A stretch of DNA of 64,000 nt from an uncultured Bacilli bacterium (GTDB lineage Bacteria > Bacillota_I > Bacilli_A > RF39 > UBA660), in contig CAKOTA010000003.1 in NCBI GenBank assembly GCA_934119965.1, positions 24,488-88,487 on the forward strand. Direction: 5' to 3'. The notes beneath the pieces were generated by a model, which ran no database searches, was not told where the DNA came from, and was given only the letters and a program-made list of their open reading frames with translations. This document shows, piece after piece, positions 9,836-63,555 of this stretch. Made by a program: the position numbers and the translations under genes. Position 1 is the first letter of the stretch. Each line of letters starts with the position of its first letter.

Positions 9836-9856
9836 ATTACCACCTATACAATTGTA

Positions 9857-11047
9857 TCATAATTTCTTTTTTAAGTCAGCATTTTCAATTATTTTATCAC
9901 CATATTTTTCTTTTAATTTATCTAAAGCTTTATCTAAATTACTATTTATATTAATTTTTTCATTATTTTCAAATAATGATCTTTGATAATTATAGTTTTC
10001 AACTAGATTATCTAGTCTAATTCCTATTAATCTGACACTATCATCATTCCACATATCATTTAATATTTGCTTTGACACTTCAAATATATCAATCGATGAA
10101 TTTATAGGATTTAGTAGTTTTTTTTGATGAGTTTTTCTTTTAAAATATTTATCTTTTATAATAACAGCCACAACATAAGCATATCTATTTTGTTTTCTAA
10201 GCCTAAGCCCTACTTTATTGGATAAAAATAGTAAATTATCATACAGTTCTGTTTTATTAGTTACATCTTTTTGTAATGTTATTTCATTACTTATACCTTT
10301 ACATATTACTTCTTCACTTACAACTCTATCTTTGTTAATTCCATTAGCACTTTCGATTAAAGATAAACTCATATTTTTAAAATATGGTCTTAATTTTTCT
10401 ACTGAAGTATTAGCCAAATCACCTATTGTATTTATATCTAATTTTAATAGTTTTTCGGTACTTCTTTTACCTACTCCAAATAAATCACTTATTGGAAGTG
10501 GCCACATTTTTTCTTTAACTTCTTCATCAAATAATGTATGTATTTTATTTGGTTTACTAAAATCACTTGCCATTTTAGCACATAACTTATTATTAGCAAT
10601 CCCAATGTTAACAGTAAAACCTAATGTTTCATTTATTTCCTTTTGTAGTTTTTTAGCAAATTCTAAAGGACTACCATATATTTTTTTAATATTTGTGTAT
10701 TCTAAATAACATTCATCAATTGAAGCTATTTCAACATCAGGTGTATATTTTTTAATTATATTAAATAATTTCCTAGACATTTCTTGATAATAGGGATAAT
10801 TCATTGGATAAGTTTTAAGAGCTGGACATTTACTTCTTGCTGAATAAAGTGTTTCACCAGTTACAACGCCTAATTTTTTAGCTGGAGTGGATTTTGCTAA
10901 AACAATACCTCTTCTAGATTTTTCATCACCACCTATAACAGCATAACTATTTCTTATATCATATTTGCTGCCGTTATTAAGTAAATATACTGCTGTCCAA
11001 GATAAAAAAGCATTATTTACATCTATATGCATCACTATTCTATCCAT
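9857..11047 (-). CDS. dinB: DNA polymerase IV (Y-family)
   Basis: It has HIDVNNAFLSW, SIDECYL and the typical Y-family layout. The start was set at ATG 11047 after GGTGAT. Confidence 0.9.
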   Translation of the reverse strand: MDRIVMHIDVNNAFLSWTAVYLLNNGSKYDIRNSYAVIGGDEKSRRGIVLAKSTPAKKLGVVTGETLYSARSKCPALKTYPMNYPYYQEMSRKLFNIIKKYTPDVEIASIDECYLEYTNIKKIYGSPLEFAKKLQKEINETLGFTVNIGIANNKLCAKMASDFSKPNKIHTLFDEEVKEKMWPLPISDLFGVGKRSTEKLLKLDINTIGDLANTSVEKLRPYFKNMSLSLIESANGINKDRVVSEEVICKGISNEITLQKDVTNKTELYDNLLFLSNKVGLRLRKQNRYAYVVAVIIKDKYFKRKTHQKKLLNPINSSIDIFEVSKQILNDMWNDDSVRLIGIRLDNLVENYNYQRSLFENNEKININSNLDKALDKLKEKYGDKIIENADLKKKL

Positions 11048-11063
11048 AAATATCACCACATTC

Positions 11064-11092
11064 ATTTTATCATATCGAACATTTGTTTACAA
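11064..11092 (-). promoter_or_regulatory. dinB promoter (TTGTAA-17-TAAAAT) overlapped by a LexA/Cheo-type box
   Basis: The + strand reads CGAACATTTGTTTA at 11076-11089, against the Bacillus LexA consensus CGAAC-N4-GTTCG. The -10 and -35 hexamers were read on the minus strand with 17-nt spacing. Confidence 0.55.
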
Positions 11093-11155
11093 GAAAAAAA
11101 GAAAACTATTTTAAGTCTTCTTTATTAATCATATATTTCTAAATAAGTAACAATT

Positions 11156-13519: not shown

Positions 13520-14562
13520 TAGTCTTCATCCTTTCTATTAAATTCTTCTAAAAATCTTAAATCATTTCCGTAGATTGTTCTAATATCTGGAATACCATAT
13601 TTAAACATAGCAAATCTATCTATTCCAGTACCAAACGCAAATCCTTGATATTTTTTAGAATCATAGCCACTCATTTCTAAAACATTTGGGTGTACCATTC
13701 CCGCCCCTAATACTTCAATCCAACCTGTTCCTTTACATAAGTTACATCCTTTACCACCACATTTAAAGCAAGTAACATCTACTTCAACTGATGGTTCTGT
13801 AAATGGAAAGTAACTTGGTCTAAATCTAACACTAGTTTTTTCGCCTAATATTTTTTTACAAAATAATTCTAATGTTCCTTTTAAGTCAGCCATTGAAATA
13901 TTTTCATCAATTACTAATCCTTCTATTTGCATAAATTGATGAGAGTGAGTAGCATCTTCATCCCTTCTATATACTTTTCCTGGGCATACTATTCTAATTG
14001 GGCCTTTTTCTTTATTTTCTTCCATAGCTCTTACTTGAGCGGTTGAGGTTTGACTTCTAAGTAACCAAGCATCATATTCATCTTTTAGATAGAATGTATC
14101 TTGAGCATCTCTAGCTGGATGTCCTATTGGTAAGTTTAATTTTTGGAAACAATTTTCATCACTTTCTATTTCTGGACCTTCATATACGGTATATCCCATT
14201 GAAACAAACAAGTCTTCAAAATCTTCTGTTACCCTAGTCATTGGATGTTTACTACCTTTTTTTACTTTTTTACTTGGCAAAGTTATATCTATTTTTTCAC
14301 TTTCTAGTTTTTTATTTAATTCTATATTATGAAATTCTTGTTTTTTTAAAGATAATATATTGTTTATTTCTTCTTTAAATTTATTAACTTTCATTCCATA
14401 TTCTTTTTTTTCTTCAGGATTTAATGTTCCCATAATACTCATTAATTCTGTAACTGGTCCTTTTTTACTAAAATATTTGGTTTCAATTTCACTTAATTCT
14501 TTAGTATTTTTTACATTTTCCAAACAATCTAATATTTCTTTTCTTAATTCTTCAATATTCAT
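13519..14562 (-). CDS. pheS: Phenylalanine--tRNA ligase alpha subunit
   Basis: 347 aa with class II aaRS motifs (FRPSYFPFTEPS, GAGMVHPNVL). Confidence 0.95.
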   Translation of the reverse strand: MNIEELRKEILDCLENVKNTKELSEIETKYFSKKGPVTELMSIMGTLNPEEKKEYGMKVNKFKEEINNILSLKKQEFHNIELNKKLESEKIDITLPSKKVKKGSKHPMTRVTEDFEDLFVSMGYTVYEGPEIESDENCFQKLNLPIGHPARDAQDTFYLKDEYDAWLLRSQTSTAQVRAMEENKEKGPIRIVCPGKVYRRDEDATHSHQFMQIEGLVIDENISMADLKGTLELFCKKILGEKTSVRFRPSYFPFTEPSVEVDVTCFKCGGKGCNLCKGTGWIEVLGAGMVHPNVLEMSGYDSKKYQGFAFGTGIDRFAMFKYGIPDIRTIYGNDLRFLEEFNRKDED

Positions 14563-16409: not shown

Positions 16410-16486
16410 TGGTGACCAGTACGAGATTCGAACTCGTGAATGCTGCCGTGAAAGGGCAGTGTGTTAAGCCGCTTCACCAACTGGCC
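16410..16486 (-). tRNA. tRNA-Glu (anticodon UUC), CCA encoded
   Basis: The reverse complement reads GGCCAGTTGGTGAAGCGG...CTGCC-CTTTCAC-GGCAG...GGTTCGAATC...GGTCACCA, which folds as a cloverleaf by eye. Confidence 0.9.
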
Positions 16487-16493
16487 AAAAAAA

Positions 16494-16569
16494 TGGCGCC
16501 TAATGTAGGACTCGAACCTACGACCTATCGGTTAACAGCCGAGTGCTCTACCAACTGAGCTAATTAGGC
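16494..16569 (-). tRNA. tRNA-Asn (anticodon GUU), CCA encoded
   Basis: The reverse complement reads GCCTAATTAGCTCAGTTGGTAGAGC...GGCTGTTAACCG...GGTTCGAGTCC...ATTAGGCGCCA. Confidence 0.9.
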
Positions 16570-46763: not shown

Positions 46764-47141
46764 TTATACTAATAGATATAATGCGCAAAGATATAGTAGT
46801 CCTAAAAGACTCATTACTAAGCTTAATAGCATTGGTTCAGCATACCCTAATTCAATATTTTCATATAATCTTGCTTTACCATTTCTTTTTACTTTTTGTT
46901 TTCCCCTTGTTTCACCACTATTTATTTCTGGATTTTCTTTTTGAATTTCTGGATAAGCATATACTGCATTACGATACTCATTTGCTACAGTAACTGGTAA
47001 TATTCCTTCATTAATATCTCTTTCTAATAAAGAAGGATCATTAATATATTGTGTTAATAAATCTATATTGATATTAGGTTTTATTTCTAATTCAGTTGTT
47101 TCTCCAAATATATCTTCTAATTCATCAAAGTTATTATTCAT
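46764..47141 (-). CDS. Hypothetical tail-anchored membrane protein
   Basis: 125 aa with an acidic N-terminus and a single C-terminal TM segment. Confidence 0.4.
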   Translation of the reverse strand: MNNNFDELEDIFGETTELEIKPNINIDLLTQYINDPSLLERDINEGILPVTVANEYRNAVYAYPEIQKENPEINSGETRGKQKVKRNGKARLYENIELGYAEPMLLSLVMSLLGLLYLCALYLLV

Positions 47142-47242: not shown

Positions 47243-48601
47243 TTAGCCTTTTAGAACTAGACGGAAGCCAACGACGCTGTCAGCAGCACCTTTGCTCCTA
47301 TCGAAGTCGAACTGACCTGCAATAACACCATGGTAGCAATTGCCGCCACGGCGGAACCAAGGGTTATAAGAGTCAACGAAAATCGAGAAGTCAGCGTACC
47401 AACTATTATGATATCTTGAATTGTTATCCCCATCAAGGTAATTTTGAAATGGTCCCATTTCTCCTGTCGCATCTCCTAAGATTCGATATTGATAACTTGT
47501 TTGTGTACTTGATGCATTATAAACATCAAAGTATTTTGAATCATAATCGGTTGGTGTTAATCCACTTGAGCCTGGTTTCCCACTTACGTATCCAGCCACA
47601 TATTCCCAAGCACCACCACTCATATCATAAATCCCTGTTATATTTCCAGTTGTACTTGCTAGATAGCCTATCTCTGTATTATATGGCTTATTATATTTAT
47701 CTCCGTCACCAGTTTTTCCTTGATATATGTTTTGATTTGTTGATGGTAAAGCACTATATCCAGTCTTATATGAACTATTATTATTGATATTTACTTCTAC
47801 ACCTATTCCATATTTTGAATGTGATAGGTATGCTACTGCTCCCCATTCTGTATTCTTCATCATATGACTATCTAATTCTCTTTTATAATTATAACTTGTT
47901 AAAAAGATATTTCCTACTGTTATATTTCTCCAACTATAAACATTTGGCTTTATTATTACTTTACTTGAATCATTACTATTTACTTGTGCTGTTGCTGTAC
48001 TAGTTGCTCCATTATATCCCGTTTCAAATTTTCCTACCCAAAATCCATTACTATTAAATGTTGTAAATGCCGGATGTGTTAACCACTCTCCATTATTACT
48101 TCCTGTACTTGCTGAAACATCTTTTGTTTCAAATTCTATTTCTATTGAATGTGCTTTCTTTATTGCTGTTCCTGTATTCCATAATTTATATCTGAATCTT
48201 GGTATCCATACAAAATATGATTCAATTGAACTGTCTGGTATTGTATCTCCTACTTTATATGTTCCACTTGATACTATTACTGCATTAGCCCATTCTTTAT
48301 TACAATAGTTATACCATTTACTATTTGTGTCTGCATATTTTACTGTTCCATCATTACTTATTGTTACTGGTATTAAATCTCCTTTTATTTCTGGAGTTGC
48401 CACATTACTTGTACAGCCTCCCATATTCATATTATTATATAATTCATCTAAGGCTGTATTTACATCTGTTGTTGTTCCATCTTTTTTATTATATACTACT
48501 TCACTTGCTTGATATTTATTTGCTGCATATAGTGTTCCACTTATACCTAATATCATTGCTATTACTGCTACAAATAATCTGCTTTTTATTATTTTCTTCA
48601 T
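47243..48601 (-). CDS. Secreted/membrane-anchored protein with a C-terminal FGE-sulfatase (SUMF1/C-type-lectin-fold) domain
   Basis: It has an N-terminal signal anchor. Domain motifs include GIYDMSGGAWEYV, WFRRGG and a terminal VGFRLV. Confidence 0.7.
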   Translation of the reverse strand: MKKIIKSRLFVAVIAMILGISGTLYAANKYQASEVVYNKKDGTTTDVNTALDELYNNMNMGGCTSNVATPEIKGDLIPVTISNDGTVKYADTNSKWYNYCNKEWANAVIVSSGTYKVGDTIPDSSIESYFVWIPRFRYKLWNTGTAIKKAHSIEIEFETKDVSASTGSNNGEWLTHPAFTTFNSNGFWVGKFETGYNGATSTATAQVNSNDSSKVIIKPNVYSWRNITVGNIFLTSYNYKRELDSHMMKNTEWGAVAYLSHSKYGIGVEVNINNNSSYKTGYSALPSTNQNIYQGKTGDGDKYNKPYNTEIGYLASTTGNITGIYDMSGGAWEYVAGYVSGKPGSSGLTPTDYDSKYFDVYNASSTQTSYQYRILGDATGEMGPFQNYLDGDNNSRYHNSWYADFSIFVDSYNPWFRRGGNCYHGVIAGQFDFDRSKGAADSVVGFRLVLKG

Positions 48602-48752: not shown

Positions 48753-49658
48753 TTATAATTTTTCTATTTCTTCTTTTGTTAATCCAGTTGCTTTAGATAT
48801 AGTATCAATATCTGTACCAATATTTTTAAAATTTCTTGCTATTTCTATACTTTTATTTACAGATCCTTGTTCAATTCCTTGTTTAAGACCTTGCTTAATA
48901 CCGCTTTGTTTTGCTTCTTCTATTAATGTATTGTATTCTAGTTCTTCTCTTGATTTTTCAAAATATAATGCTACTACATCTTCATCACTTGAATATTTCA
49001 TTGTTTCATCCATTAATTTTGATTTTGTTTCTTTTCCCATCAAATCATCCCCTAAATATTTTCTAAATTCTTCTTCTGTTTTTGCTGTTAAAACTGTACA
49101 CCATCTTGCTAATTTATTATTGTATTCATTATAACAAATTTTTCTTCCTATTACCATATCTAAATTATCTATTTCAAATTTTTCACTTAATATTTTCCCT
49201 TCTTCATTTCTTAGATAATATTTATCTATTAATTTGTTATTTTGATTTTTTAAATCCACATTTAGATTGATTTGAATTGTTTTTTTTATTTTACTATAAT
49301 TATTATCTCCATATCCTAAACTTCTTGAATGAACATTACAAGCATATACTATATTTCTTTCCTTTTTTCCATCTGAATGTTTATTATTTAATTCTATATT
49401 TATTGTTTCATTTTCTAGTTCTAATAATAAATCTATTTGTTTATTTTTGGCTTTTTTACTTTCTAATTCTAGTTCTCTTGGTAATATTTTTAATCTTCCT
49501 TTTATATCATTAATATCCATATCAAAGTAGCAAGCTAAAAAGCTTTCTAAGATATCTATATTTTCTTTTTTAGTAAATATTGCTTCAAATACAAAATCAA
49601 AGTTTAATGGTATTATTTCTCCTTCTTTTAATTCAGTTTTTCTTATATCTTGTTTCAT
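48753..49658 (-). CDS. Rpn-family recombination-promoting nuclease / putative transposase (PD-(D/E)XK_2)
   Basis: 301 aa with the N-terminal block IPLNFDFVFEAIF...ILESFL and IDLLLELENETINIELN, typical of the family. Confidence 0.6.
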   Translation of the reverse strand: MKQDIRKTELKEGEIIPLNFDFVFEAIFTKKENIDILESFLACYFDMDINDIKGRLKILPRELELESKKAKNKQIDLLLELENETINIELNNKHSDGKKERNIVYACNVHSRSLGYGDNNYSKIKKTIQINLNVDLKNQNNKLIDKYYLRNEEGKILSEKFEIDNLDMVIGRKICYNEYNNKLARWCTVLTAKTEEEFRKYLGDDLMGKETKSKLMDETMKYSSDEDVVALYFEKSREELEYNTLIEEAKQSGIKQGLKQGIEQGSVNKSIEIARNFKNIGTDIDTISKATGLTKEEIEKL

Positions 49659-50855: not shown

Positions 50856-53621
50856 CTATTCTACCACAAATGGATCATTTATTGTTCCAACTCCGCCAAG
50901 TACTTTAATATCTTTTGTTAAATATACTGAAGGATAAATATCTAATTTTGCTGTTTTTTCACTAGCATATAGCATACCATTTTCATTTAAAGATAATACT
51001 TGTTCATCTCTTTTAGAGTTTAAGATATAAGAATTAACAAATGAATTTTCATATACATTTAATAATCCTACTTTAAATGCCCCTTCTTTTTGTTTTATTT
51101 CTTCATAATTATTGTCATATTCTCCAACATACCATTTACCATCAATAATGTATTTTTTATCTAAACTATTATAGAAATTATTATTTAAATATCTTGCTAC
51201 TGAATTATATTCTCTTACATTAAATTCACTGCTAGTATATGAATATGGCATTTTTTTACAAGTATCATTTTCTTTTAAACATTCATTCAATACAACTTTT
51301 ACATATTCATCGGTTTTGTCAACAATTTTCCATAAATGTCCGCTATAAGTAAGATATTTTCCTGTAGCTACACCATATGAACTATCGATTACATATGGGT
51401 CTTCTTTTGTTCCTGTACCACTATATCCTACATCTTTTTTTAGAACTATTGATGGTCTTACTCCTAAGCTATAATCAATACTATTAGAGTTTACACCACC
51501 TTCTTTGAATACATACCATACTGATTTGTCATCTTTTTTATTAATTGTCCACCAGTATTTATTTATATTTAGGTAACCATTATTAGCCCCTGATTTTATG
51601 TATTCATCATATGTTAATAAACCAATGTTTGATTCGATTTTTGTTTTACAAACATCTGAATTTTTATCAATTTTATCAATGCACCAAGTTGATTTTTGAA
51701 GATATTTTTTTGTTTTTGTCAATTTTGGATAGAATTCATTTTCTAGATATGATTTTATATAAGAATCATTATATTCTAAATCATCACCCCAGTTAATTGC
51801 TGTAACAACATCATCAGTTACTAATTTAACTGTTCGATCATTATTAACTTTTACTATCCTCCATAAATATCCTGAATATGAAACATAATTATTTTTAATA
51901 TTTCCCTTTAATGTATAGTCATTATCTTTCATATAAAATTCATCTACTTCATTATCTTCTAATACTTTATGAGCTAAACTATTGTCAGTATAATTTGCTT
52001 TTGGATGTTCAATTTTATAATAATGAACTAATCTATATGTATATATACCAACTAATGATAATAAGAATAATAATGATATTATCATAAAAATATTTTTAAT
52101 TTTATCGTGTTTTATTAATGATACTCCTGTCATTTCTTTTGGTTTTTCCAGGTTCATTAATTCTAACATTGTTGGTACTACATCACATAATCTACCATTA
52201 TTTAATTTTACTTTTTCATCAGTTACTATACAAGGAACTAAGTTTGTTGTATGGCTTGTTACAGGATTATGATCTTTATCCCACATAACATCACAATTAC
52301 CGTGATCGGCTATTATAACTAATGTCCCTCCTATTTCCTCTACTTTTTTATATATTTTTCCAACACATTCATCTAATACTTCAACAGCTTTAACGGCAGC
52401 ATCATAATTACCAGTATGTCCTACCATATCTCCGTTTGCTAAATTCATAATTGTAACATCATAATTATTTACTTCTTCTAAAAATTTATCAGTTACTTCA
52501 TATGCACTCATTTCTGGTTTCAAGTCATATGTTGCAACTTTAGGTGATGGTATAAGTATTTTTTTCATATCGTCGTATTCTACTTCTTTACCACCATCAA
52601 AGAAAAATGTTACATGAGCAAATTTTTCAGTTTCGGCTATTCTTAATTGACTTAAATTATGATTATGTAAATAGTCAACTAGAATGTTTTTCATATCATT
52701 ATCGTGGAAAGCATATGGTGCTTTTACGCTGTTAACTACTGGCATCATTGTTACAACACTTAAGTTTTTGAATTTTTTTAATTCCAATCCTTTTTCGTTG
52801 GCTGCAGTTTGATATTCAAGAGGGTTAGTAATACAAGTTAACATTTCTCTTAAACGATCTTTTCTAAAATTAAATACTATTAATCCATCATTATCTTCTA
52901 ATGTTATTTTGTTTATTATACCTGGTTCTATAAATTCATCAGTAATGTTTTTTTCATAATTACTGTTTATTAATTCCTCTACACTACTATATATTTTGCC
53001 TTCACCGTAAACTATGGTATCATATGATTTTTTTAGTCGATCAAAATTATTGTCACGATCCATTCCATAGTATCTACCACCTATAGTAGCGATTTCACCA
53101 ATTCCTGATTCTTTAATTTTATCTTCTAATTGTTTTATATATTTTAAGGCACTTTTTGGTTCAACATCTCTTCCATCTGTAAATATATGAAAGTAAAGTT
53201 TTTCTATTTTATTTTGCTTTGCCATATCTATTAGCGCAAACAAATGATTAATACTAGAATGTATTCCTCCATCTGATAATAATCCCATTATGTGCAATTT
53301 TGAATTATTTTGTTTAACACGGTTTATGGTTTTTAGTAGTTCTTCATTTTTAAATATTGTTTTATCTTTTATTGATTTATTTATAAATTCCAATGGTTGA
53401 TATGTTAATCTACCTGATCCAATATTCATATGTCCTACTTCACTAGTTCCCATTTGTCCTTTAGGAAGTCCAACAGCTTCGCCACTAGCTTTTAATAATG
53501 AATGTGGATATTTCTTCATAAGTGAGTCTAAATTAGGTTTTTTAGCATTTTTAAAAGCATTTCCGTCTTTATTTTTTCTTATTCCACATCCATCTAATAT
53601 ACATAGTACCATTTTTTTCAT
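50856..53621 (-). CDS. gpmI: 2,3-bisphosphoglycerate-independent phosphoglycerate mutase fused to a TM helix and a ~390-aa extracytoplasmic two-module domain
   Basis: The first ~504 aa are canonical iPGM (LDGCG, SEVGHMNIGSGR, ADHGN) ending ...TGVSLIK (K codon at 52110-52112). The frame then continues HDKIKNIFMIISLLFLLSLVGIYTYRLV (TM at about 52026-52091) and runs to 50856. The start was set at ATG 53621 after AGGTGAT. Confidence 0.75.
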   Translation of the reverse strand: MKKMVLCILDGCGIRKNKDGNAFKNAKKPNLDSLMKKYPHSLLKASGEAVGLPKGQMGTSEVGHMNIGSGRLTYQPLEFINKSIKDKTIFKNEELLKTINRVKQNNSKLHIMGLLSDGGIHSSINHLFALIDMAKQNKIEKLYFHIFTDGRDVEPKSALKYIKQLEDKIKESGIGEIATIGGRYYGMDRDNNFDRLKKSYDTIVYGEGKIYSSVEELINSNYEKNITDEFIEPGIINKITLEDNDGLIVFNFRKDRLREMLTCITNPLEYQTAANEKGLELKKFKNLSVVTMMPVVNSVKAPYAFHDNDMKNILVDYLHNHNLSQLRIAETEKFAHVTFFFDGGKEVEYDDMKKILIPSPKVATYDLKPEMSAYEVTDKFLEEVNNYDVTIMNLANGDMVGHTGNYDAAVKAVEVLDECVGKIYKKVEEIGGTLVIIADHGNCDVMWDKDHNPVTSHTTNLVPCIVTDEKVKLNNGRLCDVVPTMLELMNLEKPKEMTGVSLIKHDKIKNIFMIISLLFLLSLVGIYTYRLVHYYKIEHPKANYTDNSLAHKVLEDNEVDEFYMKDNDYTLKGNIKNNYVSYSGYLWRIVKVNNDRTVKLVTDDVVTAINWGDDLEYNDSYIKSYLENEFYPKLTKTKKYLQKSTWCIDKIDKNSDVCKTKIESNIGLLTYDEYIKSGANNGYLNINKYWWTINKKDDKSVWYVFKEGGVNSNSIDYSLGVRPSIVLKKDVGYSGTGTKEDPYVIDSSYGVATGKYLTYSGHLWKIVDKTDEYVKVVLNECLKENDTCKKMPYSYTSSEFNVREYNSVARYLNNNFYNSLDKKYIIDGKWYVGEYDNNYEEIKQKEGAFKVGLLNVYENSFVNSYILNSKRDEQVLSLNENGMLYASEKTAKLDIYPSVYLTKDIKVLGGVGTINDPFVVE

Positions 53622-53677
53622 ATCATCACCTATTATATATTCTATCACAATTTAATATAGAGATAAAGAAAAAATCA

Positions 53678-53929: not shown

Positions 53930-54697
53930 TTACATTCCTATTTTACTTCCTTCTAGTCTTAATTTATCAGCTATTGTAACTATAAATTCTGAATTAGTTG
54001 GTTTTGCTTTGTCAATATCAACACTATGTCCAAATATTTCTTCCATTAAGTCCCAATTACCACGATTCCAACTTACTTCAATTGCGTGTCTGATTGCTCT
54101 TTCAACTCTTGAAGTTGTTGTTTCAAATTTGTTTGCTAACTCAGGATATAGTTCTTTAGTTATACCTCCTATTTTTTGAGGTTTATTATATATTATACTT
54201 ATTCCTTCTCTTATATATTGATAACCTTTTATATGAGATGGAATACCTAATTCGTGAAGAATTTTAGTGATTGATATTTGTAAATTATTGTGTCTAAAAT
54301 CTATATTTTTGCTTGTTTTATTTTCATCAGATGTAATTTCTATAATTCTCTTTTCTAAATCAACTAATTCGAATGGTTTAAGCAAAAAATAACTTACACC
54401 ATATTCTGACACTTTTCTTATTACATCACTAGCGTTGTAACTAGTTGATACAATTACTTTTTTATCAATATTTCTAGCTTTCATTTCTTCTAATACATAC
54501 ATTCCATCTTTATTTGGCATTATTAAGTCTAAAACTATTACATCATACATATCTTGTTTTTCTTCAATTAATTTTATTCCTTCTAAACCATCATGCGCTT
54601 CTAAAACAATACTAACATTACTACTTTTAAAATACTCCTTAATCATTTCAATTAAACTTATATTATCATCAACCATAAGTACACGTATTTTTTCCAT
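53930..54697 (-). CDS. spo0A: Sporulation master regulator Spo0A
   Basis: A receiver domain (VLMVDDN...DLIMPNKDG) and a Spo0A-specific C-terminal domain ([39 protein letters not shown]). Confidence 0.9.
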
Positions 54698-54819
54698 ATT
54701 CATTCCCTCTCTATTAGTACTACTTCAACAATAAAATTATACAACATATTACTACAATTATAAAGAATTTAATTTATCTAGTTTTGACGGATTTTGTCGT
54801 TTTTAGTAAAAAAAAGTCG

Positions 54820-55494
54820 TTAGCTATTAACAACTTCTATAATTTTTAAAAACTCTACTACATCAGTTGATGCTTTACCTATTAAAACACCATCTGTTAC
54901 CTTTATTATTTCAGAAATATTACTACTATTAACACTTCCACCATATAAAACTTTTGTGTTTACTATTTCTTTTATTTTACTTATATTGTTTTCTATTTCA
55001 GAAACAGTTGGCACAATATTTGTTCCTATTGCCCATATTGGTTCATAGGCTATTATGACTTCTTCATTTACATCTTTCAAGCATTCATTTATTTGTTTTT
55101 TTAATACTTCAATTGTTTTATTATTTTGTTTTTCTTCTAATGTTTCTCCGATACATAGGATTACTTTTAAATTATTTTTTAAAGCTTCCTTTATTTTATG
55201 ATTAACTACTATATTTGTTTCAATAAAGTTTGTTCTTCTTTCAGAGTGTCCAATTATTGCATATGAAATTCCTAGACTTTTAGCTTGTTTAGCAGTTATT
55301 TCACCTGTACAAGTTTTATCATTTAAATAGATATTTTGAATTCCTACTTCAAACTTTTTATTTAAAAAATAAGGTATAAAAATATTTGATGGACAAATTA
55401 CAACATTTTCTATTTTGTCTATTTGTTTCAAATATATAGCAGTATCATGAGCATCCATATAATTTTTAAGATTACCTACTATTAATTTTTCCAT
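54820..55494 (-). CDS. tpiA: Triosephosphate isomerase
   Basis: 224 aa with GNLKNY, IIGHSERR and AYEPIWAIGT. Its start overlaps the upstream GT4 gene by 13 nt. Confidence 0.85.
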   Translation of the reverse strand: MEKLIVGNLKNYMDAHDTAIYLKQIDKIENVVICPSNIFIPYFLNKKFEVGIQNIYLNDKTCTGEITAKQAKSLGISYAIIGHSERRTNFIETNIVVNHKIKEALKNNLKVILCIGETLEEKQNNKTIEVLKKQINECLKDVNEEVIIAYEPIWAIGTNIVPTVSEIENNISKIKEIVNTKVLYGGSVNSSNISEIIKVTDGVLIGKASTDVVEFLKIIEVVNS

Positions 55495-56696
55495 TTTATT
55501 ACCCCTTTTAGTTTATCAATGAACGATTCATTTTTAGAACCATTTATTGTTATATTATAAACATCTAATATTTTTTCAGCATAGTATTTTAAAGAATGTG
55601 ATTCAGCTGTTACTCTAGCTTGTTTGCACATTACTTTATATTGTTCTTTATTTTTATACAAATTTTCTATTGCGTTTACATATTCTTTATCATTCTTAAA
55701 TACTTTACCATTTAAACCATCAATGACAGCATCTTTAAACGACTCATCATCAGCACATACAACTGGAATAGATGCAGCCATTGCTTCTATAACGGTTAAT
55801 CCTTGAGTTTCAGTTACTGATGCGGTTACAAATATATTAGAAATTGCATAATAGCTTGCAATCTCATAGTGAGGCACAGCTCCAGTAAATATTACTTTAT
55901 CTTCTAAATCTAATTTTTTTACCATTTCTTTAAATTTTTCTAAGTCTGGTCCATTACCTACTATCATAAGTTTGCATTTTTTATTTAATTTGGTATGATT
56001 ATTAATCAAAAATTCGATATTTTTTTCTTCAGCTAATCTTCCAACATAAGTTATTATAAAGTCATCTTTTTTAAATTTTAATTCTTTTTTTAATAATTCT
56101 AATTCTTTTTTATTTTGATTTTCAATATAAAATTTTTCAACATCTATACCAGTTGGTACTATATGAATTGTTTTATTTACTTTATATTTTTCTTTAAATA
56201 AATCATAGGTCTTTTTGCTTGGAACAATTAATTCTTTAGCTGTTTTGTCACAGTAAAATTTGGTAAAATATTCGGCTAATTTTTTACTAGATTTATCAAA
56301 ATAACCTTTGGTAATATAATGAACATAATCTTCATACATTGTATGGTATGTATGAACTAATGGTATATTAAATTGTTTAGCTATTATTCTAGCGAATGTT
56401 CCAACTCCAAATTCAGTATGTGAATGGATTATATCTAAGTTCCATTTTTTAATTTTATTGATTGCTCTTAGTGGATAAATTCCTGTTAACCTATAATCAT
56501 ATATTCCTGTAGGGATTCCTGGAATTCTTATTATATGATCATCATCTTCATATTTGTATGTTAGGTTTTCGGAATTAACTGTTACGATATATACTTCATG
56601 GCCTTTTGCTTTCAAAGCTTTTTCTAAACTTACAATACTTGTTGATACTCCATTTATATATGGAGGATATGTATCGGTAAATATTCCTATTCTCAT
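55482..56696 (-). CDS. GT4-family glycosyltransferase, diacylglycerol glucosyltransferase-like (glycolipid synthase)
   Basis: It begins MRIGIFTDTYPPYINGVSTSI and has the EX7E region ETQGLTVIEAMAASIPVV. Confidence 0.7.
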   Translation of the reverse strand: MRIGIFTDTYPPYINGVSTSIVSLEKALKAKGHEVYIVTVNSENLTYKYEDDDHIIRIPGIPTGIYDYRLTGIYPLRAINKIKKWNLDIIHSHTEFGVGTFARIIAKQFNIPLVHTYHTMYEDYVHYITKGYFDKSSKKLAEYFTKFYCDKTAKELIVPSKKTYDLFKEKYKVNKTIHIVPTGIDVEKFYIENQNKKELELLKKELKFKKDDFIITYVGRLAEEKNIEFLINNHTKLNKKCKLMIVGNGPDLEKFKEMVKKLDLEDKVIFTGAVPHYEIASYYAISNIFVTASVTETQGLTVIEAMAASIPVVCADDESFKDAVIDGLNGKVFKNDKEYVNAIENLYKNKEQYKVMCKQARVTAESHSLKYYAEKILDVYNITINGSKNESFIDKLKGVIKWKN

Positions 56697-57691
56697 TTTT
56701 TAGCCCCTTTTCCGATACTTAGTGTAATTGCTCCTAATATCATTGCGAAATAATAAGTGATAAAGCGCCATAATAACATTATAGCTGTTACTATTTTAGT
56801 ACTATCAAAGTTTGAGAAAAAGGCTACAAATCCATATTCTAGGCCTCCTGTACCACCTGGTATCGGAACAAATGATCCAATTAGCATAACATAGGCTGAT
56901 GTTGCTATTGCTATTAATGGATTAATGTATATACCAACTCCCATAAATAATACAAATGGAATTAGATATAAAGATGTTAATGAAACAAATTGTAAAAATA
57001 TTAGTCCCAAAAATTGGGGTTTGTTTTCAAATATTTTTTTAGCGCCTTCATTAAATTCTTTTATATATTTATCTAAATCTTCTAATGTTTTATCTTTATT
57101 TTTAAATATTTTGAATTTATTTAATATTTTAACTATAAAAGAAAGAATTAATTTACTTATTTTTTTAGTAAATGATAGTAAGAATAATACTACTATTACT
57201 AAAAAATTAATAATAAATCCTAATGTAACTAGTTTTTCCAATAAATTGTTTTTAGGAAACAGGTTCAAAAAATAGTTACTTATAATTGCAATTGTTCCAA
57301 GTAATACTAGTGCAATTTGATATATTATAAATGATTGAACTGACACATTTGTAGCATCTGTTAATTTTATATTGTTCTTTTTTAATGAGTATATTTCGTA
57401 TGGTTGTCCACCTGTTGAAAATGGTGTTATAGCGTGAAAAAAGTTTGTTTCTACAACCATTCTAAATGCATTTCTAAAGCGATATTTTCCGTACTTTTTA
57501 GTTACAATCCACATAGTTATGGCTTTAAAAAACCAATAACTAAATAATAGGAAAAATCCTAACAATAAAAATTTCTTGTCAATATTTAAGATTGTATCTA
57601 TTACAGTAGTATAGTCATCTTTTAGTGAAAAATATAAAACCAATATAGTCACAATTATCAATAAAATTGCGTTTATTATTTTCTTTTTCAT
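56693..57691 (-). CDS. UPF0104 / lysyl-PG-synthase-TM-like flippase-type membrane protein
   Basis: 332 aa with about 8 TM segments and a PIPGGTGGLEYGF motif. ATGA overlaps with the GT4 gene. Confidence 0.6.
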   Translation of the reverse strand: MKKKIINAILLIIVTILVLYFSLKDDYTTVIDTILNIDKKFLLLGFFLLFSYWFFKAITMWIVTKKYGKYRFRNAFRMVVETNFFHAITPFSTGGQPYEIYSLKKNNIKLTDATNVSVQSFIIYQIALVLLGTIAIISNYFLNLFPKNNLLEKLVTLGFIINFLVIVVLFLLSFTKKISKLILSFIVKILNKFKIFKNKDKTLEDLDKYIKEFNEGAKKIFENKPQFLGLIFLQFVSLTSLYLIPFVLFMGVGIYINPLIAIATSAYVMLIGSFVPIPGGTGGLEYGFVAFFSNFDSTKIVTAIMLLWRFITYYFAMILGAITLSIGKGAKK

Positions 57692-57692
57692 T

Positions 57693-58865
57693 TTATCCCT
57701 CGATTACTTCTATCCCTGGTAATTTTTTTCCTTCTAATAATTCTAATGAAGCTCCTCCGCCTGTTGATATATGAGTCATATAGTCTTTATAACCCAAATT
57801 TACAATTGCTGATGCTGTATCGCCTCCACCAATTATTTTTGTTGCGTCTAAATTTTTTAGAATTTCGCAAATTCCAATTGTTCCTTTGTTGAACTCTTCT
57901 TGTTCAAACATTCCAACTGGTCCATTCCAAATAATTGTTTTGCTGTTTTCTAAATATGTTTTAAATAATTTTACTGTATTATATCCAATGTCTAATCCCA
58001 TTTCATTATCTTTTATTTCGTTTATGAAACAAGTTCTTCCTGATTCATTTATATCTATAGCATTAACACTATCAATTGGCAATATTATTTTATCTTTGTA
58101 TTTTTCTAACATTTCTTTACAAAATTCAATTGATTCTTCATCTAATAAGGACTTTCCAATATTAATTCCAGTTGCTTTTAAGAATGTATAAGCCATTCCA
58201 CCACCTATTAAAATATAGTCAGCTACATTTACTAGATTTTTAATTACTCCGATTTTATCTTTTACTTTCGCACCACCTAATATTACTGTTAATGGTCTAT
58301 CTGGATTTGTTAAAACTTTATTAAAGGCATTTAATTCTTTTTCGATTAAAAAACCTATACCACTTGGTAAATTTGAAGCAATTCCTACATTTGATGCATG
58401 AGCTCTATGACTTGTTCCAAATGCATCATTTATATAAATATCTCCTAATGATGCCCAATATTTTCCTAATTCTTGGTCATTACTTGATTCTTTTTTTCCG
58501 TCTAAATCTTCATATCTAGTATTTTGAATTAATAATACTTCACCATTATTCATATTATTAATTCTATCCTCTAATATTTTTCCCCTTGTATGGTTAGAAA
58601 ATAGAACTTTTTTATTTAATAATTCACTTAAACGAATAGCTACAGGATATAGATTATTTTTTTCTAAATCACTTTCTTCTTTTATTCTTCCTAAATGTGA
58701 TAATAGTATTACTTTTGCACCTTTATCTATTGCATAGTTAATTGTTTCTAAACTTTCTTTTATTCGGGTATCATCTGTAATTACTCCATCTTTCATAGGA
58801 ACATTAAAATCGACTCTTATGATTATTTTTTTACTATTTAATTCAAAGTCTCTGATTGTTTTCAT
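57693..58865 (-). CDS. pgk: Phosphoglycerate kinase
   Basis: 390 aa with RVDFNVP, SHLGRP-like and GGGDTA motifs. Confidence 0.95.
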   Translation of the reverse strand: MKTIRDFELNSKKIIIRVDFNVPMKDGVITDDTRIKESLETINYAIDKGAKVILLSHLGRIKEESDLEKNNLYPVAIRLSELLNKKVLFSNHTRGKILEDRINNMNNGEVLLIQNTRYEDLDGKKESSNDQELGKYWASLGDIYINDAFGTSHRAHASNVGIASNLPSGIGFLIEKELNAFNKVLTNPDRPLTVILGGAKVKDKIGVIKNLVNVADYILIGGGMAYTFLKATGINIGKSLLDEESIEFCKEMLEKYKDKIILPIDSVNAIDINESGRTCFINEIKDNEMGLDIGYNTVKLFKTYLENSKTIIWNGPVGMFEQEEFNKGTIGICEILKNLDATKIIGGGDTASAIVNLGYKDYMTHISTGGGASLELLEGKKLPGIEVIEG

Positions 58866-59227
58866 TTTGATTCCACCATTTCGAATTGTAATATATTTTC
58901 TTCATTTTTATAAACTTTAATTTGAATTTTCTTATTTTCTTCATCTTTTACTTTTTTATTATTATTTGGATTAATTAAATCACTTTTTAAATATCCTGAT
59001 TTTAATAATTCATCTATTGTAACATAAGTTGCATCGGTTGTTATAACAATTCCCTCTTCTTGAACATATGCCTCTGTTGCAATATAAACATCATTTAAAA
59101 AATTTTCTTCAGCGTTTGTATCACCTTGTTTAATCATATTAGTTATGTACGGCACTGAAATAAGTAATATAATTGCTGTTATTGTAAATACTGCTAACAA
59201 CTCTATCATTGTAAATCCTTTTTTCAT
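58862..59227 (-). CDS. Prepilin-type (type IV pilin/pseudopilin-like) protein, small
   Basis: It has a class III signal (MKKGFTMIELLAVFTITAIILL). The start was set at ATG 59227 after GGTGA. Its stop overlaps the pgk start (ATGA). Confidence 0.7.
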   Translation of the reverse strand: MKKGFTMIELLAVFTITAIILLISVPYITNMIKQGDTNAEENFLNDVYIATEAYVQEEGIVITTDATYVTIDELLKSGYLKSDLINPNNNKKVKDEENKKIQIKVYKNEENILQFEMVESK

Positions 59228-59304
59228 TATTATCACCATATATAATTTTAACAATTTTTAGTTATTTTAGCAAGGTATATATAAAAGAAAAAGACTATTA
59301 GTCT

Positions 59305-60948
59305 TTAATCTATTACATATGGATTTTGTAATGTACCATTACCTGATGTAACAGTAGTAGCAATATTTACCACTATTACTGGTCTTATTGCTAATTCATC
59401 AGAGATATTATTATCACTAACATACCCTGAGGCTTTAAGATTATCAGACAAAATTGTGGTATTATACCCTGTTATATAATATGCATTTGTTTCATTTGTA
59501 GTTTTATTAAGCACCCAATAATCTTTTGTTTCTGATATTGACGCACTTTGACTAGATAACATTTCACCTATTCTAATTAATCCTACTTTTGCTTTTATTT
59601 GACCATCTCTATTGTTTAATATGTCAATATATTTTTCTCCACCTATAAATCCTGTTCCTTGATACCAATCAGAATTTACAATTTTTTTTGAATTACTTAA
59701 CCAATCCAATACTTCATTATTCAAAAATTTTCCTATTCCTGATGAGACATCAAAACCAGTACTTGTTCCATACATAGTTGATGAATCATAGTAACCATCA
59801 TATATTAATTTTGTTCCCGTTGAATTTTTACTTACTACTCTATATATTTTATCATTCAAAGTTACATATTCACCACTAGTTGCGATTTTATTCAATTTTC
59901 CTGTTTGATCATTTATATCTTGACTCAATATATATGGATTAGCAATTGAGCCGTCACCACTATTAATAACTACATAGGGACTTATATTTATAACCGGTCT
60001 CACTCCTGCATAGGTATTAGCTCCCATATGGTTATATTTATTTTGAAGAATACTATTAGGAATAGTAGCATTATATGGTGTTAAAGTCCAAAAATGATCA
60101 TTAGTCCCTAAATAATATGTTGAATTTGTTATTGTTTCACTTAATGTAAATTCATCTGCACTTATCAATCCTACTTTTGCAGTTATTAATTTTCCACCCG
60201 TACAATCAGTTCTATTATATGGTCCAACGCTCTGATTAATACACCAATTACTATCTTGAATAATAGCATTTTTTTCACTACTTAGGTTACCTAGAAAATA
60301 ATCATTTAACCAATCTTTTAAATATCCTTCACTATCATAATTTAGTGTTGCAGATTCTTTTGCCCAAGCAACTGTTCCAACACTTTCTTGTGTAATTAAT
60401 CTAATTGTTCCATCTTCATTTAACCCCATTATTCGCCATAAAAAACCATTATACCAAACATAGTTATTTGTTTGAATTCCTTTTAAATATGTTCCATTCA
60501 TGTAATTATAATTTCCATAGGAATTGTTGTCAAGTAATTCTTGAGTAACTTTATTTATGTAAAAAGGTTCAAAATGTTTTTCTAATAGTTTATATTTATA
60601 TTCATTGTCATCATTCATAAATAATTCTACTGTATAATCTTCTTCTTTTACATTTTTTTTATTTTTAGGATCTGTAATTGTAGCTTTTAAATATCCAGAT
60701 TCTAATAATTCCGAAAAATATACATAAACTTTGCTTGAATTATAGTTTAAGGCTGGATATTTATTGATATTTTTTTGAACATATGCTTCAGTTGATAAAA
60801 ATATATCACTCAAAAATCTTTCATATTCATTTTCTCTCGCTTTTTTATAAACATTTGTTATTTCTGGAAAGACAATTAGAAAAATAATTGTCAAAACTGA
60901 TAAAACTACCAACATTTCTACTAAAGTGAAGCCCTTTTTATTCTTCAT
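59305..60948 (-). CDS. Prepilin-type protein with a large C-terminal two-module domain
   Basis: It begins MKNKKGFTLVEMLVVLSVLTIIFL. The pilin-like ~125 aa are paralogous to 58862..59227. Two modules follow, ending GVRPVINIS...SGDGSIANPYIL and AIRPVIVVN...SGNGTLQNPYVID. Confidence 0.7.
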   Translation of the reverse strand: MKNKKGFTLVEMLVVLSVLTIIFLIVFPEITNVYKKARENEYERFLSDIFLSTEAYVQKNINKYPALNYNSSKVYVYFSELLESGYLKATITDPKNKKNVKEEDYTVELFMNDDNEYKYKLLEKHFEPFYINKVTQELLDNNSYGNYNYMNGTYLKGIQTNNYVWYNGFLWRIMGLNEDGTIRLITQESVGTVAWAKESATLNYDSEGYLKDWLNDYFLGNLSSEKNAIIQDSNWCINQSVGPYNRTDCTGGKLITAKVGLISADEFTLSETITNSTYYLGTNDHFWTLTPYNATIPNSILQNKYNHMGANTYAGVRPVINISPYVVINSGDGSIANPYILSQDINDQTGKLNKIATSGEYVTLNDKIYRVVSKNSTGTKLIYDGYYDSSTMYGTSTGFDVSSGIGKFLNNEVLDWLSNSKKIVNSDWYQGTGFIGGEKYIDILNNRDGQIKAKVGLIRIGEMLSSQSASISETKDYWVLNKTTNETNAYYITGYNTTILSDNLKASGYVSDNNISDELAIRPVIVVNIATTVTSGNGTLQNPYVID

Positions 60949-61088
60949 ATTATCACCTAAGATGATTATAACAAAAAAATTAAAAGTTTTAAACTATTTA
61001 TACAATATCATTTTAAATTTATATAATTATTGTATATTTTAATAGTATATTGTTTTCAATTATGGTAAAATAAGATTGAGGTGATAAT

Positions 61089-62489
61089 ATGAACAAAAGT
61101 ATTCGTACTATATTTATGGTTTTGTTTTTACTTGTTCTAATTATTTGTAGTTTTCTTATTTCAAAAAAGAATCCAGATATTAAGAAAGATGAATCAAGTA
61201 TAAATTTTAAAACTTCTTATAATAAAAATAATACTGTTGATATAGTTGTTGAAACTAATGACAAAGACATCCAATATTCATTCGATAATGGAAAAACATG
61301 GCAAAAAGAAAATTCTTTTGTTGCTACTAAAAATGGAACTTATAATATCAAAATTAAGGATAGTAATGGTATTATAAAATCAACAAAATGTATTGTAAAT
61401 AAAATAGATGATGAAGGACCTGAATTATCTATAAATTTACCTCAGGAAATAACAGTTGGTGAAGAAATAAATTTAGCTGATTATGCAAAAATAACAAATA
61501 ATGATAAATTATCTGGAAATATTGTTATAACACCTAATAAAATAGATACTTCTACAAAGAACGACTATTATATTACTTATTCAGCCACTGATATTTATGG
61601 AAATACATCAACTAAAGAGGTAAAAATTAGAGTCGTAGATAAAGTAAATAATTCTGTCACAACAATATTTGGTAGCACTCTAAAACCAGCTGATGATAAA
61701 ACTTATTATAGATATAGAACTAAAAAAACTGTTACATATGATTGTAACGAATATGATTGTAGTTATTTGGATGTTTCTACTAAAGAAGTCGCTAATGTAA
61801 AATATAATAATCCAGATTGTCCTAATGGTGGAGCATATATAAATAATCCATGTCCTATAGGTAGTAGTTGTACAGCAAATATGGTATCAAGTAATAATTC
61901 AAAAGGAAATATTTGTTATAGCCGTAGTTACATATATGGTAAAAATTCATCAACAAATACAGGAAAAGAAAAAACTGAATGTACTGATGGTGAGATTAAA
62001 ATAGGTGATTATTGTCATAAAATTATGGCGATTGGAACTTATCCTGAAGGATGTACTGATAGTTCATGTGTTGAATTTCCTAGTGGTCCTTGTAATGGTG
62101 ATGATGGTCCTGAAATTAATACACCTTGTCCAATTGGAAAACAATGTGTAACAGTAATGACTAATACTTATAAGAGATATCAAAATTATTGTTATAATGT
62201 TTCGTATATTTATAATTATTCTTCGAATAATGCTTATGATAAATATGGTAATAAAGTTGTTTGTGATAGTGACGAAATTAAGATAGGTAACTATTGCCAC
62301 AAAATTATTGAAAAAGGTTCCTACTATTGTAATTCTAATGAAGAACTAAAAGATGGTTACTGTTATTCAAAAATTATAAAATCTTGTTCTAATAGTTGTA
62401 AAAAAGATGTTTGGAGTGAGTGGAGTGATTGGTCTACAATTCCAGTTAGCCCATCTCTTAATGTTGATGTTGAAACGAAATCCAATTAA
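61089..62489 (+). CDS. Signal-anchored Cys-rich surface protein with an Ig-like domain
   Basis: An N-terminal TM segment and an Ig-like segment (DDEGPELS...ITYSATDIYGNTSTKEVKIRVVD). There are two ~95-aa Cys-rich modules and a C-terminal WSEWSDWS. Confidence 0.55.
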   Translation: MNKSIRTIFMVLFLLVLIICSFLISKKNPDIKKDESSINFKTSYNKNNTVDIVVETNDKDIQYSFDNGKTWQKENSFVATKNGTYNIKIKDSNGIIKSTKCIVNKIDDEGPELSINLPQEITVGEEINLADYAKITNNDKLSGNIVITPNKIDTSTKNDYYITYSATDIYGNTSTKEVKIRVVDKVNNSVTTIFGSTLKPADDKTYYRYRTKKTVTYDCNEYDCSYLDVSTKEVANVKYNNPDCPNGGAYINNPCPIGSSCTANMVSSNNSKGNICYSRSYIYGKNSSTNTGKEKTECTDGEIKIGDYCHKIMAIGTYPEGCTDSSCVEFPSGPCNGDDGPEINTPCPIGKQCVTVMTNTYKRYQNYCYNVSYIYNYSSNNAYDKYGNKVVCDSDEIKIGNYCHKIIEKGSYYCNSNEELKDGYCYSKIIKSCSNSCKKDVWSEWSDWSTIPVSPSLNVDVETKSN

Positions 62490-62517
62490 AAAACTTTCAA
62501 AATGAAAGTTTTTTTGT
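62488..62517. terminator. Bidirectional terminator between the Cys-rich gene and gap
   Basis: AAACTTTC-AAAAT-GAAAGTTT flanked by A- and T-runs. Confidence 0.7.
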
Positions 62518-62541
62518 TGAAAAAAAATAAATAGTTTAAAA

Positions 62542-63555
62542 CTATTTATTCATTAATTTTCCTAAATACTTAGCTGTTCTAACCATTTGAGTAGTATAAC
62601 CCATTTCATTATCATACCAAGCAACTATTTTAACTAATTGTCTACCATCTGACTCTAATACTGATGTTGATAATCCATCAACTAAAGATCCTAGATGAGA
62701 TCCAATTATATCACTTGAAACAACTGGATCGTATGTTATATCAATTGTTTCATTTTTGTTGATTTCAAATACTTTATTAATATTTTCTACTGTTGTTTTT
62801 ACTTTTAGTTCTAGTGTTAAATCAATTACAGAACCTGTTGTTACTGGAACTCGCATTGCCATTCCATCTAATTTTCCTTCTAAATTAGGTAATACTCTAC
62901 CAATGGCAGCAGCAGCACCTGTTGTAGCTGGAATTATATTTGCAGCGGCAGCTCTTCCTCTTCTTGCTTTAATTCCTTTTTTATGTGGAACATCTAATGT
63001 AGCTTGATCATTCGTATATGCATGAACAGTAGTCATATATCCTTTTTCAATTTTAAAGTAATAATCTAATATTCTAAGTACTGGCGCTAAACAATTTGTT
63101 GTACAAGAAGCTGCAGATATAATTTCTTCACTTCCATCTAATGTTTTTTCATTAACGTTATAAACTATTGTTTTTAAGTCTCCTTTTGCTGGAGCACTGA
63201 TTATTACTTTTTTTGCTCCTGCTTCAATATGAGCGTGAGCAGCATCTTTATCAGTAAATTTTCCAGTACATTCAAATACGATATCTACATCTAATTCTTT
63301 CCAAGGTAAATTTTTAGGATCCATCTCAGAGTATATTCTGACTTTTCTTTCACCTACTACAATAGAATCTTCTGTATTGCTAATTTCATTTACTCTATAA
63401 TTTCTATGACTTGTATCATATTTTAATAAATAAGCTAGTTGTTCAGCATCAGTTAAATCGTTGATGGCAACTACTTCAAAATTTGGATCTTCTTCCATTA
63501 ATCTAAATACTAATCTACCTATTCTTCCAAATCCATTTATTGCGACTTTTATCAT
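62542..63555 (-). CDS. gap: Glyceraldehyde-3-phosphate dehydrogenase
   Basis: 337 aa with INGFGRIGR and the SCTTNCLAP active site. Confidence 0.95.
   Translation of the reverse strand: MIKVAINGFGRIGRLVFRLMEEDPNFEVVAINDLTDAEQLAYLLKYDTSHRNYRVNEISNTEDSIVVGERKVRIYSEMDPKNLPWKELDVDIVFECTGKFTDKDAAHAHIEAGAKKVIISAPAKGDLKTIVYNVNEKTLDGSEEIISAASCTTNCLAPVLRILDYYFKIEKGYMTTVHAYTNDQATLDVPHKKGIKARRGRAAAANIIPATTGAAAAIGRVLPNLEGKLDGMAMRVPVTTGSVIDLTLELKVKTTVENINKVFEINKNETIDITYDPVVSSDIIGSHLGSLVDGLSTSVLESDGRQLVKIVAWYDNEMGYTTQMVRTAKYLGKLMNK

Follow-up and report, generated by a model that had tools for sequence, protein, structure and literature searches.

Between the glycolytic genes gap and pgk, a 64,000-nucleotide stretch of DNA from an uncultured Bacilli bacterium (GenBank assembly GCA_934119965.1, contig CAKOTA010000003.1; this whole stretch is called the window in the following) carries two minus-strand genes whose products start like type IV prepilins. 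The arrangement is real, conserved and unusual, and it is best described as modular type IV pilins in a cassette-like gap/pgk slot. We consider it probable that the large gene encodes a modular type IV pilin adhesin, that the small gene encodes a paralogue of its carrier part and that both products are borne on a filament. Cleavage, filament incorporation, adhesion and co-transcription are steps that we infer from the sequence.

Pilin signal, carrier and cargo

The large gene (59305-60948, minus strand) encodes 547 aa with the N-terminus MKNKKGFTLVEML, and the small gene (58862-59227, minus strand) encodes 121 aa starting with MKKGFTMIELL. Split at the predicted cleavage site, the signal reads MKNKKG followed by FTLVEMLVVLSVLTIIFLIVFP in the large pilin and MKKG followed by FTMIELLAVFTITAIILLISVP in the small pilin. 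Cleavage of the large pilin is predicted before F7, which makes E11 the mature position +5. All elements of a class III signal are found in both proteins, namely a basic leader, the Gly, F+1, E+5 and a hydrophobic tract of ~21 residues. Both also score above the cut-offs of Pfam N_methyl (33.4 bits for the large and 24.3 bits for the small pilin; cut-off 21.2) and NCBIfam TIGR02532 (27.8 and 21.2 bits; cut-off 16.3). Within a six-frame translation of the whole window, the motif [GA]F[TSA]xxE occurs at two sites only, and these are the starts of the two pilin open reading frames (ORFs). The start of the small pilin is ATG 59227, which is preceded by GGTGAT and conserved in the orthologues; the ORF listing had begun at TTG 59254.

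The carrier module of the large pilin (60574-60948, minus strand) comprises residues 1-125 with the leader MKNKKG, a helix at 9-59 and a small beta-sheet. Over the first ~123 aa, the two pilins are 38% identical (BLASTP, E 6e-26), and the small pilin consists of the carrier module alone. By this comparison, the small pilin stems from a duplication of the carrier and has no cargo. Among 8,000 candidates scored, 647 relatives of the large pilin were found at E <= 0.001, most of them ~570 aa long and of the same architecture. In an alignment of 60 homologues, with identities of 34-56%, F+1 (F7), T+2 (T8), E+5 (E11) and P+22 (P28) do not vary and G-1 hardly varies. A search with the family profile retrieves solved type IV pilins, among them Streptococcus sanguinis PilE1 (E 1e-11), geopilin, PilA and GspG, and in these matches the mature F1 of the solved pilins aligns with the predicted cleavage site of the family.

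The AlphaFold2 model of the large pilin (mean pLDDT 88.7, pTM 0.84) contains helix 9-59, a small sheet and two globular modules, while that of the small pilin (pLDDT 83.9) contains helix 7-58 and strands. Both models have the pilin 'lollipop' shape, and in both predictions an N-terminal helix of ~50 residues is joined to a small beta-sheet head. We conclude from profiles, alignments and models that both ORFs are type IV pilin-family genes and that the large one is modular. An earlier note, made from the letters of the window, had proposed the class III signal at both ORF starts, the paralogy of the first ~125 aa and two additional modules in the large ORF; all three hold, the N-terminal profile search keeps the pilin reading, and the predicted structure of the 547-aa protein shows the carrier followed by the two modules.

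Cargo module 1 (59914-60573, minus strand; residues 126-345) belongs to DUF6273 and is C-type-lectin-like (Pfam, Foldseek). The Pfam model DUF6273 (PF19789) matches residues 204-323 with 31.1 bits against a cut-off of 23.5. Cargo module 2 (59308-59913, minus strand; residues 346-547) is a diverged repeat of module 1 (24% identity, E 3e-7, BLASTP), recognised solely as a homologue of module 1 and of the family. A carrier of residues 1-125 followed by two DUF6273 modules corresponds to the definition of a modular pilin (PMC8179133). The top PDB match of the large model in Foldseek is the Thomasclavelia ramosa IgA peptidase 9qa6 (E 2.7e-6), whose N-terminal domain is DUF6273 (PMC12402451), and the matches in the viral library BFVD are phage DUF6273 proteins and receptor-binding proteins. 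The literature describes the DUF6273 fold as C-type-lectin-like and counts the domain among the targets of diversity-generating retroelements (DGRs) (PMC10743442). Since C-type-lectin matches of the whole model are weak in Foldseek, the assignment of the cargo fold is based on the DUF6273 literature and on 9qa6. Taking the domain matches and the models together, the large pilin is most likely a ligand-binding adhesin.

Comparison with related assemblies suggests how this cargo changes. The relatives found are metagenome-assembled genomes (MAGs) of uncultured gut 'Bacilli bacterium' or 'Tenericutes', including Candidatus Pelethosoma and Ca. Faecisoma, the latter being placed in the GTDB order RF39 (PMC8035907). 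Loci from their assemblies carry L-numbers, with L077 being the contig that is identical to the window. Between the window and L001, identity is 94% for Gap, 87% for Pgk and 70% for the carrier, and it falls to 46-48% for the cargo modules; the whole large pilin is 51% identical to its L001 orthologue (53% in the 60-homologue alignment). L079 and L080, contigs of a near-identical strain, encode a Gap protein identical to that of the window, their small pilin and pgk are 92% identical to the window in nucleotides and their carrier is 82-83% identical in nucleotides. Their cargo is a glycine-rich ALK_LTK_GRD domain, not DUF6273. Homology between the window and L080 breaks at residue ~126, which is the joint of carrier and cargo. 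Judged from these comparisons, cargo evolution is rapid, and recombination at the carrier/cargo joint exchanges one cargo for another.

Many paralogues show a further kind of variation. In L083 (10915-13864), a template repeat, an Avd gene and a fragment of a broken reverse-transcriptase gene lie downstream of a family member. Both modules of this family member have a variable region at their end, and its differences from the template are at adenines. Family members in eleven other loci are likewise followed by this 161-nt template, with an identity of 84-96% (78% in L039). Loci of DGR type are L083 as well as L009, L013, L016, L025, L026, L028, L029, L033, L036, L038, L039 and L043. The template repeat lies ~60-100 nt past the pilin stop, in L028 without avd or reverse transcriptase. 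A cassette of orf136, avd and reverse transcriptase adjoins some of these family members, and the avd and reverse-transcriptase genes are intact in L025, L026, L036, L038 and L043. Variable region, cognate template repeat and reverse transcriptase were all found for the paralogues in L083, L026, L036, L038 and L043. The window itself contains no sequence resembling a template repeat or variable region, and no reverse transcriptase (RVT_1) appeared in the Pfam scan of its ORFs; the window copy as a DGR target was rejected on these grounds. The family shows that pilin cargo can diversify by two routes, the exchange of whole modules at the joint and a retroelement-driven hypermutation at two sites per protein.

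Homologous modules are also attached to a glycolytic enzyme. The window gene gpmI (50856-53621 or 50856-53648, minus strand; 921-930 aa) encodes a full iPGM domain (656 bits, NCBIfam cut-off 331) that continues in frame into a membrane helix, IFMIISLLFLLSLVGIYTY, and two DUF6273-like modules. These modules are 24% identical to the pilin cargo over 426 aa (E 2e-26). The fusion is very rare, with about three cases among 1.84 billion representative proteins. L001 (933 aa) and P0427 (934 aa) share its junction, while P0429 and P0446 are shorter at the N-terminus, with query residues 1-422 and 1-339, respectively, outside the best matched stretch. An independent internal start for the extension is unlikely, given the conserved junction and the lack of a Shine-Dalgarno-like sequence upstream of the in-frame ATG.

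The gap/pgk boundary

The window has a G+C content of ~24% and carries nearly all genes on the minus strand. The gene gap (62542-63555, minus strand; Pfam Gp_dh_N and Gp_dh_C, GAPDH) is the upstream neighbour of the pilin slot. It is followed by a terminator-like hairpin, AAUAAAUAGUUUUAAACUAUUUAUU with a U-run (62500-62541, minus strand), that folds with -20.9 kcal/mol (z -5.3) and is conserved in L001 and L080. A promoter scan places a promoter-like site of the form TTTAAA-17-TGtTATAAT, with an extended -10 element, before the large pilin and just past the gap terminator (60965-60993, minus strand); a GGTGAT ribosome-binding site comes after it, and TGTTATAAT together with GGTGAT is conserved in L001 and L080. 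A hairpin AAAGACU-AAU-AGUCUUU with a U-rich tail (59281-59306, minus strand) overlaps the large-pilin stop and is predicted to be terminator- or attenuator-like. Its fold has z -2.9, the L001 counterpart z -7.4, and L080 has a different hairpin at this place. A simple terminator scan gave no matches, as none of the AT-rich hairpins has three or more G-C pairs, hence the use of RNA folding. A second promoter-like site, TTGCTA-17-TGtTAAAAT (59245-59273, minus strand; promoter scan), precedes the small pilin and pgk. It is conserved in L001 and L080, giving the consensus TTGnnA-17-TGnTAAAAT across the three, and is again followed by GGTGAT.

The stop of the small pilin overlaps the start of pgk in the sequence ATGA (58862-58865, minus strand), and such overlaps are found in L001 and L080 too. 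pgk and the genes of an LPG_synthase_TM-family membrane protein, a GT4 glycosyltransferase and tpi (54820-58865, minus strand; Pfam) are tightly packed or overlapping. The small gene would thus be the first cistron of a unit of pgk, LPG_synthase_TM, GT4 and tpi and would be translationally coupled to pgk. The large gene probably forms its own transcription unit just upstream of the small gene, with read-through being possible; with its own promoter-like site, the hairpin after its stop and the second promoter-like site, it is probably not the head of the pgk unit. The earlier note had both pilin genes heading this unit and their expression tied to that of glycolytic genes. We infer that the small gene alone clearly heads it. 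The note had read the ATGA overlap correctly, and the tie to glycolytic expression, read from the gene layout only, is plausible for the small gene.

The link between pilin genes and pgk, which the earlier note suggested checking by synteny, recurs in relatives. In five further assemblies (L001, L008, L049, L059 and L080), the gene directly before pgk encodes a pilin, and in two more (L048 and L079) a pilin gene adjoins gap. Four loci (L001, L008, L049 and L059) repeat the order gap, pilin gene or genes, pgk, LPG_synthase_TM, GT4, tpi and spo0A, while L048, L079 and L080 show parts of this order. The full order in L001 is gap, large pilin, small pilin, pgk, LPG_synthase_TM, GT4, tpi, spo0A, the gpmI fusion and NAGPA. 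In L008, 13 nt separate the stop of the large pilin from the ATG of pgk. Going by this synteny, the boundary of gap terminator and pgk promoter is an old, conserved home for pilin genes in the clade. Other family members are located after rplQ, beside or before ecfA, after valS, after rnfD and beside bacA. A dispersal of type IV filament genes at operon borders appears to be the rule in the clade.

A stronger view of the locus takes the gap/pgk boundary as a dedicated, constitutively expressed cassette slot, in which a conserved pilin carrier takes up interchangeable, fast-evolving modules (two DUF6273 modules or ALK_LTK_GRD), with surface recognition functionally coupled to glycolytic flux. 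We regard this as unlikely. If it were true, the slot would belong to a broader integration of surface-recognition modules into operons of central metabolism in this reduced-genome gut clade, with the GpmI fusion as its extreme case, and would not be a mere consequence of tolerated insertion sites.

Further features surround the two genes. Between gap and the large pilin lies a ~1.5-kb insertion (61015-62520, plus strand; breakpoints from blastn). It is missing from L001, L079 and L080, and a copy of the ~29-nt gap terminator stands on either side of it, one of the two being degenerate. It holds a plus-strand gene (61089-62489) for a 466-aa, signal-anchored, Ig-like and Cys-rich surface protein (Pfam Bact_surface_Ig-like), and a second hairpin after the gap terminator serves this convergent gene. 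Identical or near-identical contigs widen the view beyond the window by ~9.5 kb and ~10 kb (~20 kb in total). One of them, ENA ERZ28613985, is 100% identical to the window and is the locus L077. Beyond window position 64000, it carries two further pilin-like genes ~5 kb upstream of gap (L077 3812-5164 and 5176-7563), so that four pilin-like genes lie within ~11 kb. The first encodes a 450-aa protein with the E5-less N-terminus MNNKGFAVSGIIYG, and the second a 795-aa protein with the canonical N-terminus MKKGFTLVELL, Ig-like repeats and a Cys-rich end. The 466-aa protein shares only weak Ig-like repeat similarity with the latter.

On the other side of the pilin slot (53930-57691, minus strand), LPG_synthase_TM and GT4 stand between pgk and tpi, and spo0A stands between tpi and gpmI; eno is found ~19 kb past the other end of the window. 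Since Spo0A, DivIVA and SepF are encoded in the window (Pfam), the lineage belongs to walled Bacillota that retain the sporulation regulator Spo0A. Elsewhere in the window, two adjacent tRNA genes (16413-16569, minus strand) are the sole Rfam matches. Two tandem YhcG/DUF1016 PD-(D/E)XK nuclease paralogues (4587-6370, minus strand) were noted, the second with a truncated nuclease domain, and there is a PDDEXK_2 transposase-like gene at 48753-49658. A 452-aa protein with a signal-like N-terminus and without Pfam match (47243-48601, minus strand) is encoded next to a 125-aa protein with a hydrophobic tail at its C-terminus (46764-47141).

Probable filament assembly and alternative readings

On the reading that we favour, a prepilin peptidase would cut after Gly6 of the large pilin or Gly4 of the small pilin. 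A PilB/PilC machine, with its genes in another part of the genome, would insert the pilins into a type IV filament via their helices. The bulky modular pilin would be located at or near the filament tip. Its small paralogue would be a partner or stabiliser, on the model of the S. sanguinis PilA-PilC pair, or a filament subunit.

Such machinery was found in relatives, in scattered loci. In L037, a GspE/PilB-like ATPase adjoins a large-pilin family member, and in L037, L071, L084 and L085 two small conserved pilin genes are neighbours of the PilB-like ATPase. One of these two small pilins is fused to an ALK_LTK_GRD domain in L037. More than 120 clusters are 72-94% identical to the L037 ATPase, and one of these clusters includes Ca. 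Faecisoma merdavium, a species that also carries the family member L033. E. coli HofB, HofC, GspE, GspF and GspO as probes found just the ATPase in relatives, and the PilC and PilD of the clade were taken from L085. This locus (8886-14092) has pilB, pilD (motif GGGDIKL) and pilC together with two small pilins; in L086 (6063-8768) and L087, pilC-pilD lie downstream of dnaG-rpoD-trmK, and pilB with two small pilins is found beside queH-bacA. The filament genes of L037 lie at 4135-7496. PilD is 63-82% identical across many 'Bacilli bacterium' MAGs.

The earlier note had seen no PilB, PilC, PilD or PilM-like ORF in the 64 kb, and the searches agree. T2SSE, T2SSF, Peptidase_A24 and PilM are absent from the 56 window ORFs of at least 90 aa (Pfam scan), phmmer with E. 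coli and clade-specific PilB, PilC and PilD probes gave no match in the window, and a scan for the PilD motif GxGD[VIFALM]K in L001-L074 and the window gave none either. As the relatives scatter pilB, pilC-pilD and pilins among housekeeping genes, the lack of machinery in the window proves little. The genes of a complete type IV filament system can lie dispersed over housekeeping operons, and missing neighbouring pil genes are a poor argument against function.

Several observations weigh against a filament-borne adhesin. pilB, pilC and pilD are missing both from the window and from its ~20 kb of extensions (precomputed Pfam lists). The machinery is seen in relatives only, and UvdE of one of them, L085, is just 46% identical to that of the window. 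Some relatives have N-termini without E5, such as MNNKGFAVSG (L077) and NNRGFAISG (L057). The counterpart of the hypervariable loop of the family is diverged in the window copy, and Foldseek returned no significant PDB match for the small-pilin model. On GpmI, the same cargo is displayed via a plain membrane helix. Because of this display on GpmI and of the E5-less relatives, surface display without a filament is possible in the clade.

The alternative that survives best builds on these points. The prepilin-like N-terminus would be a membrane anchor only, and the proteins would be type II membrane proteins on the surface without any filament. The dispersed pilin genes with no machinery nearby, the homologous cargo on an ordinary membrane helix in the GpmI fusion and the variants without E5 are all consistent with it. 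A simple anchor would, however, not hold G-1, F+1, E+5 and P+22 together with a ~100-aa pilin head in 60 homologues, and PilB and PilD rank with the most highly conserved proteins in the clade. Pilins without E5 are normal as tip subunits, with GspK as an example, and the 450-aa E5-less protein of L077 looks as expected for such a subunit. GspK is a minor pilin of the tip (PMC8179133). We therefore hold a pure anchor function to be unlikely.

Some Sulfolobus sugar-binding proteins carry a class III signal, and by analogy to this bindosome, the pilin-anchored lectin modules could capture glycans as nutrients for fermentation and hence be wired into the glycolysis operon. The position at gap/pgk that is conserved in several species, the overlap of the small gene with pgk, the fusion of the same modules to GpmI and the lectin-like cargo fold would suit this idea. 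Against it, family members at rplQ, ecfA, valS, rnfD and bacA make insertion at operon borders look general, surfaces for adhesion or an arms race are a better fit to DGR targeting and module swapping, and no transporter is linked. In our estimate, nutrient capture of this kind is improbable.

Least probable of all, and very doubtful in our view, are ComG-type competence pseudopilins for DNA uptake: the host is a monoderm Bacillota, the small pilin has about the size of ComGC and the best partial NCBIfam matches are ComGC, ComGE and ComGD, but the scores stay far below the cut-offs (ComGC 39 and 31 bits against 75; ComGE 35 and 24 against 49), the ATPase of the clade reaches 490 and 482 bits as GspE/PilB against 266 as ComGA (all below equivalog cut-offs), the lectin-like cargo is of a type used in phage receptor-binding proteins and DGR targets (PMC10743442), and comE, comF and dprA are absent from the neighbourhood. 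From the minor-pilin or pseudopilin-type adhesin of the earlier note, we keep the minor-pilin type with adhesin-like cargo.

Comparison with known systems

With the large pilin and its relatives, modular pilins gain a large uncharacterised family, of which the genomes of uncultured RF39-like gut Bacilli each hold many paralogues. The gap/pgk slot and the fusion of cargo modules to GpmI offer handles on how reduced-genome gut symbionts express and vary adhesins.

Modular type IV pilins of S. sanguinis are PilB with a vWA module and PilC with a lectin module, together with the small partner PilA (PMC8179133, PMC9934059). As in PilB and PilC, a short linker connects a small carrier with class III signal to a bulky binding module in the window pilin. 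The host is likewise a monoderm, a small pilin gene without cargo adjoins the modular one, and by analogy adhesion at the tip would be expected. Unlike in S. sanguinis, the cargo consists of two DUF6273 modules and not of a vWA or ConA-like module, the genes lie between gap and pgk and not in a pil locus, and small pilin and carrier are recent paralogues. Moreover, the cargo is swapped between strains and, in many paralogues, diversified by retroelements.

DGR variable proteins with a C-type-lectin fold, including the phage DUF6273 'tentaclins' (PMC10743442), share the domain family, and related MAG members of the pilin family have the variable region, template repeat, avd and reverse transcriptase. 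The window gene differs from them in having no template repeat or variable region, in a window without reverse transcriptase, and in being anchored by a type IV pilin carrier. A GspG-type pilin domain has been recorded as a rare case among the domains bearing variable regions in a DGR survey (PMC11661182), and it is not listed in PMC6642488. The IgA peptidase of T. ramosa (9qa6, PMC12402451), the best match among solved structures, is likewise a surface protein of a gut Bacillota. Identity to it is 16%, and there DUF6273 precedes an M64 peptidase in a protein that is probably sortase-anchored. The pilin has no peptidase domain.

In terms of gene order, the pilin slot finds its counterpart in the gapA region of Bacillus subtilis. 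There, cggR-gapA is followed by pgk-tpi-pgm-eno, which are transcribed from an internal promoter. As in B. subtilis, the junction of gap and pgk in the window is a boundary of transcription units, and pgk and tpi follow. Unlike in B. subtilis, this boundary holds pilin genes, the envelope genes LPG_synthase_TM and GT4 stand between pgk and tpi, spo0A separates tpi from gpmI, and gpmI itself is fused to modules of the kind that the large pilin carries as cargo.

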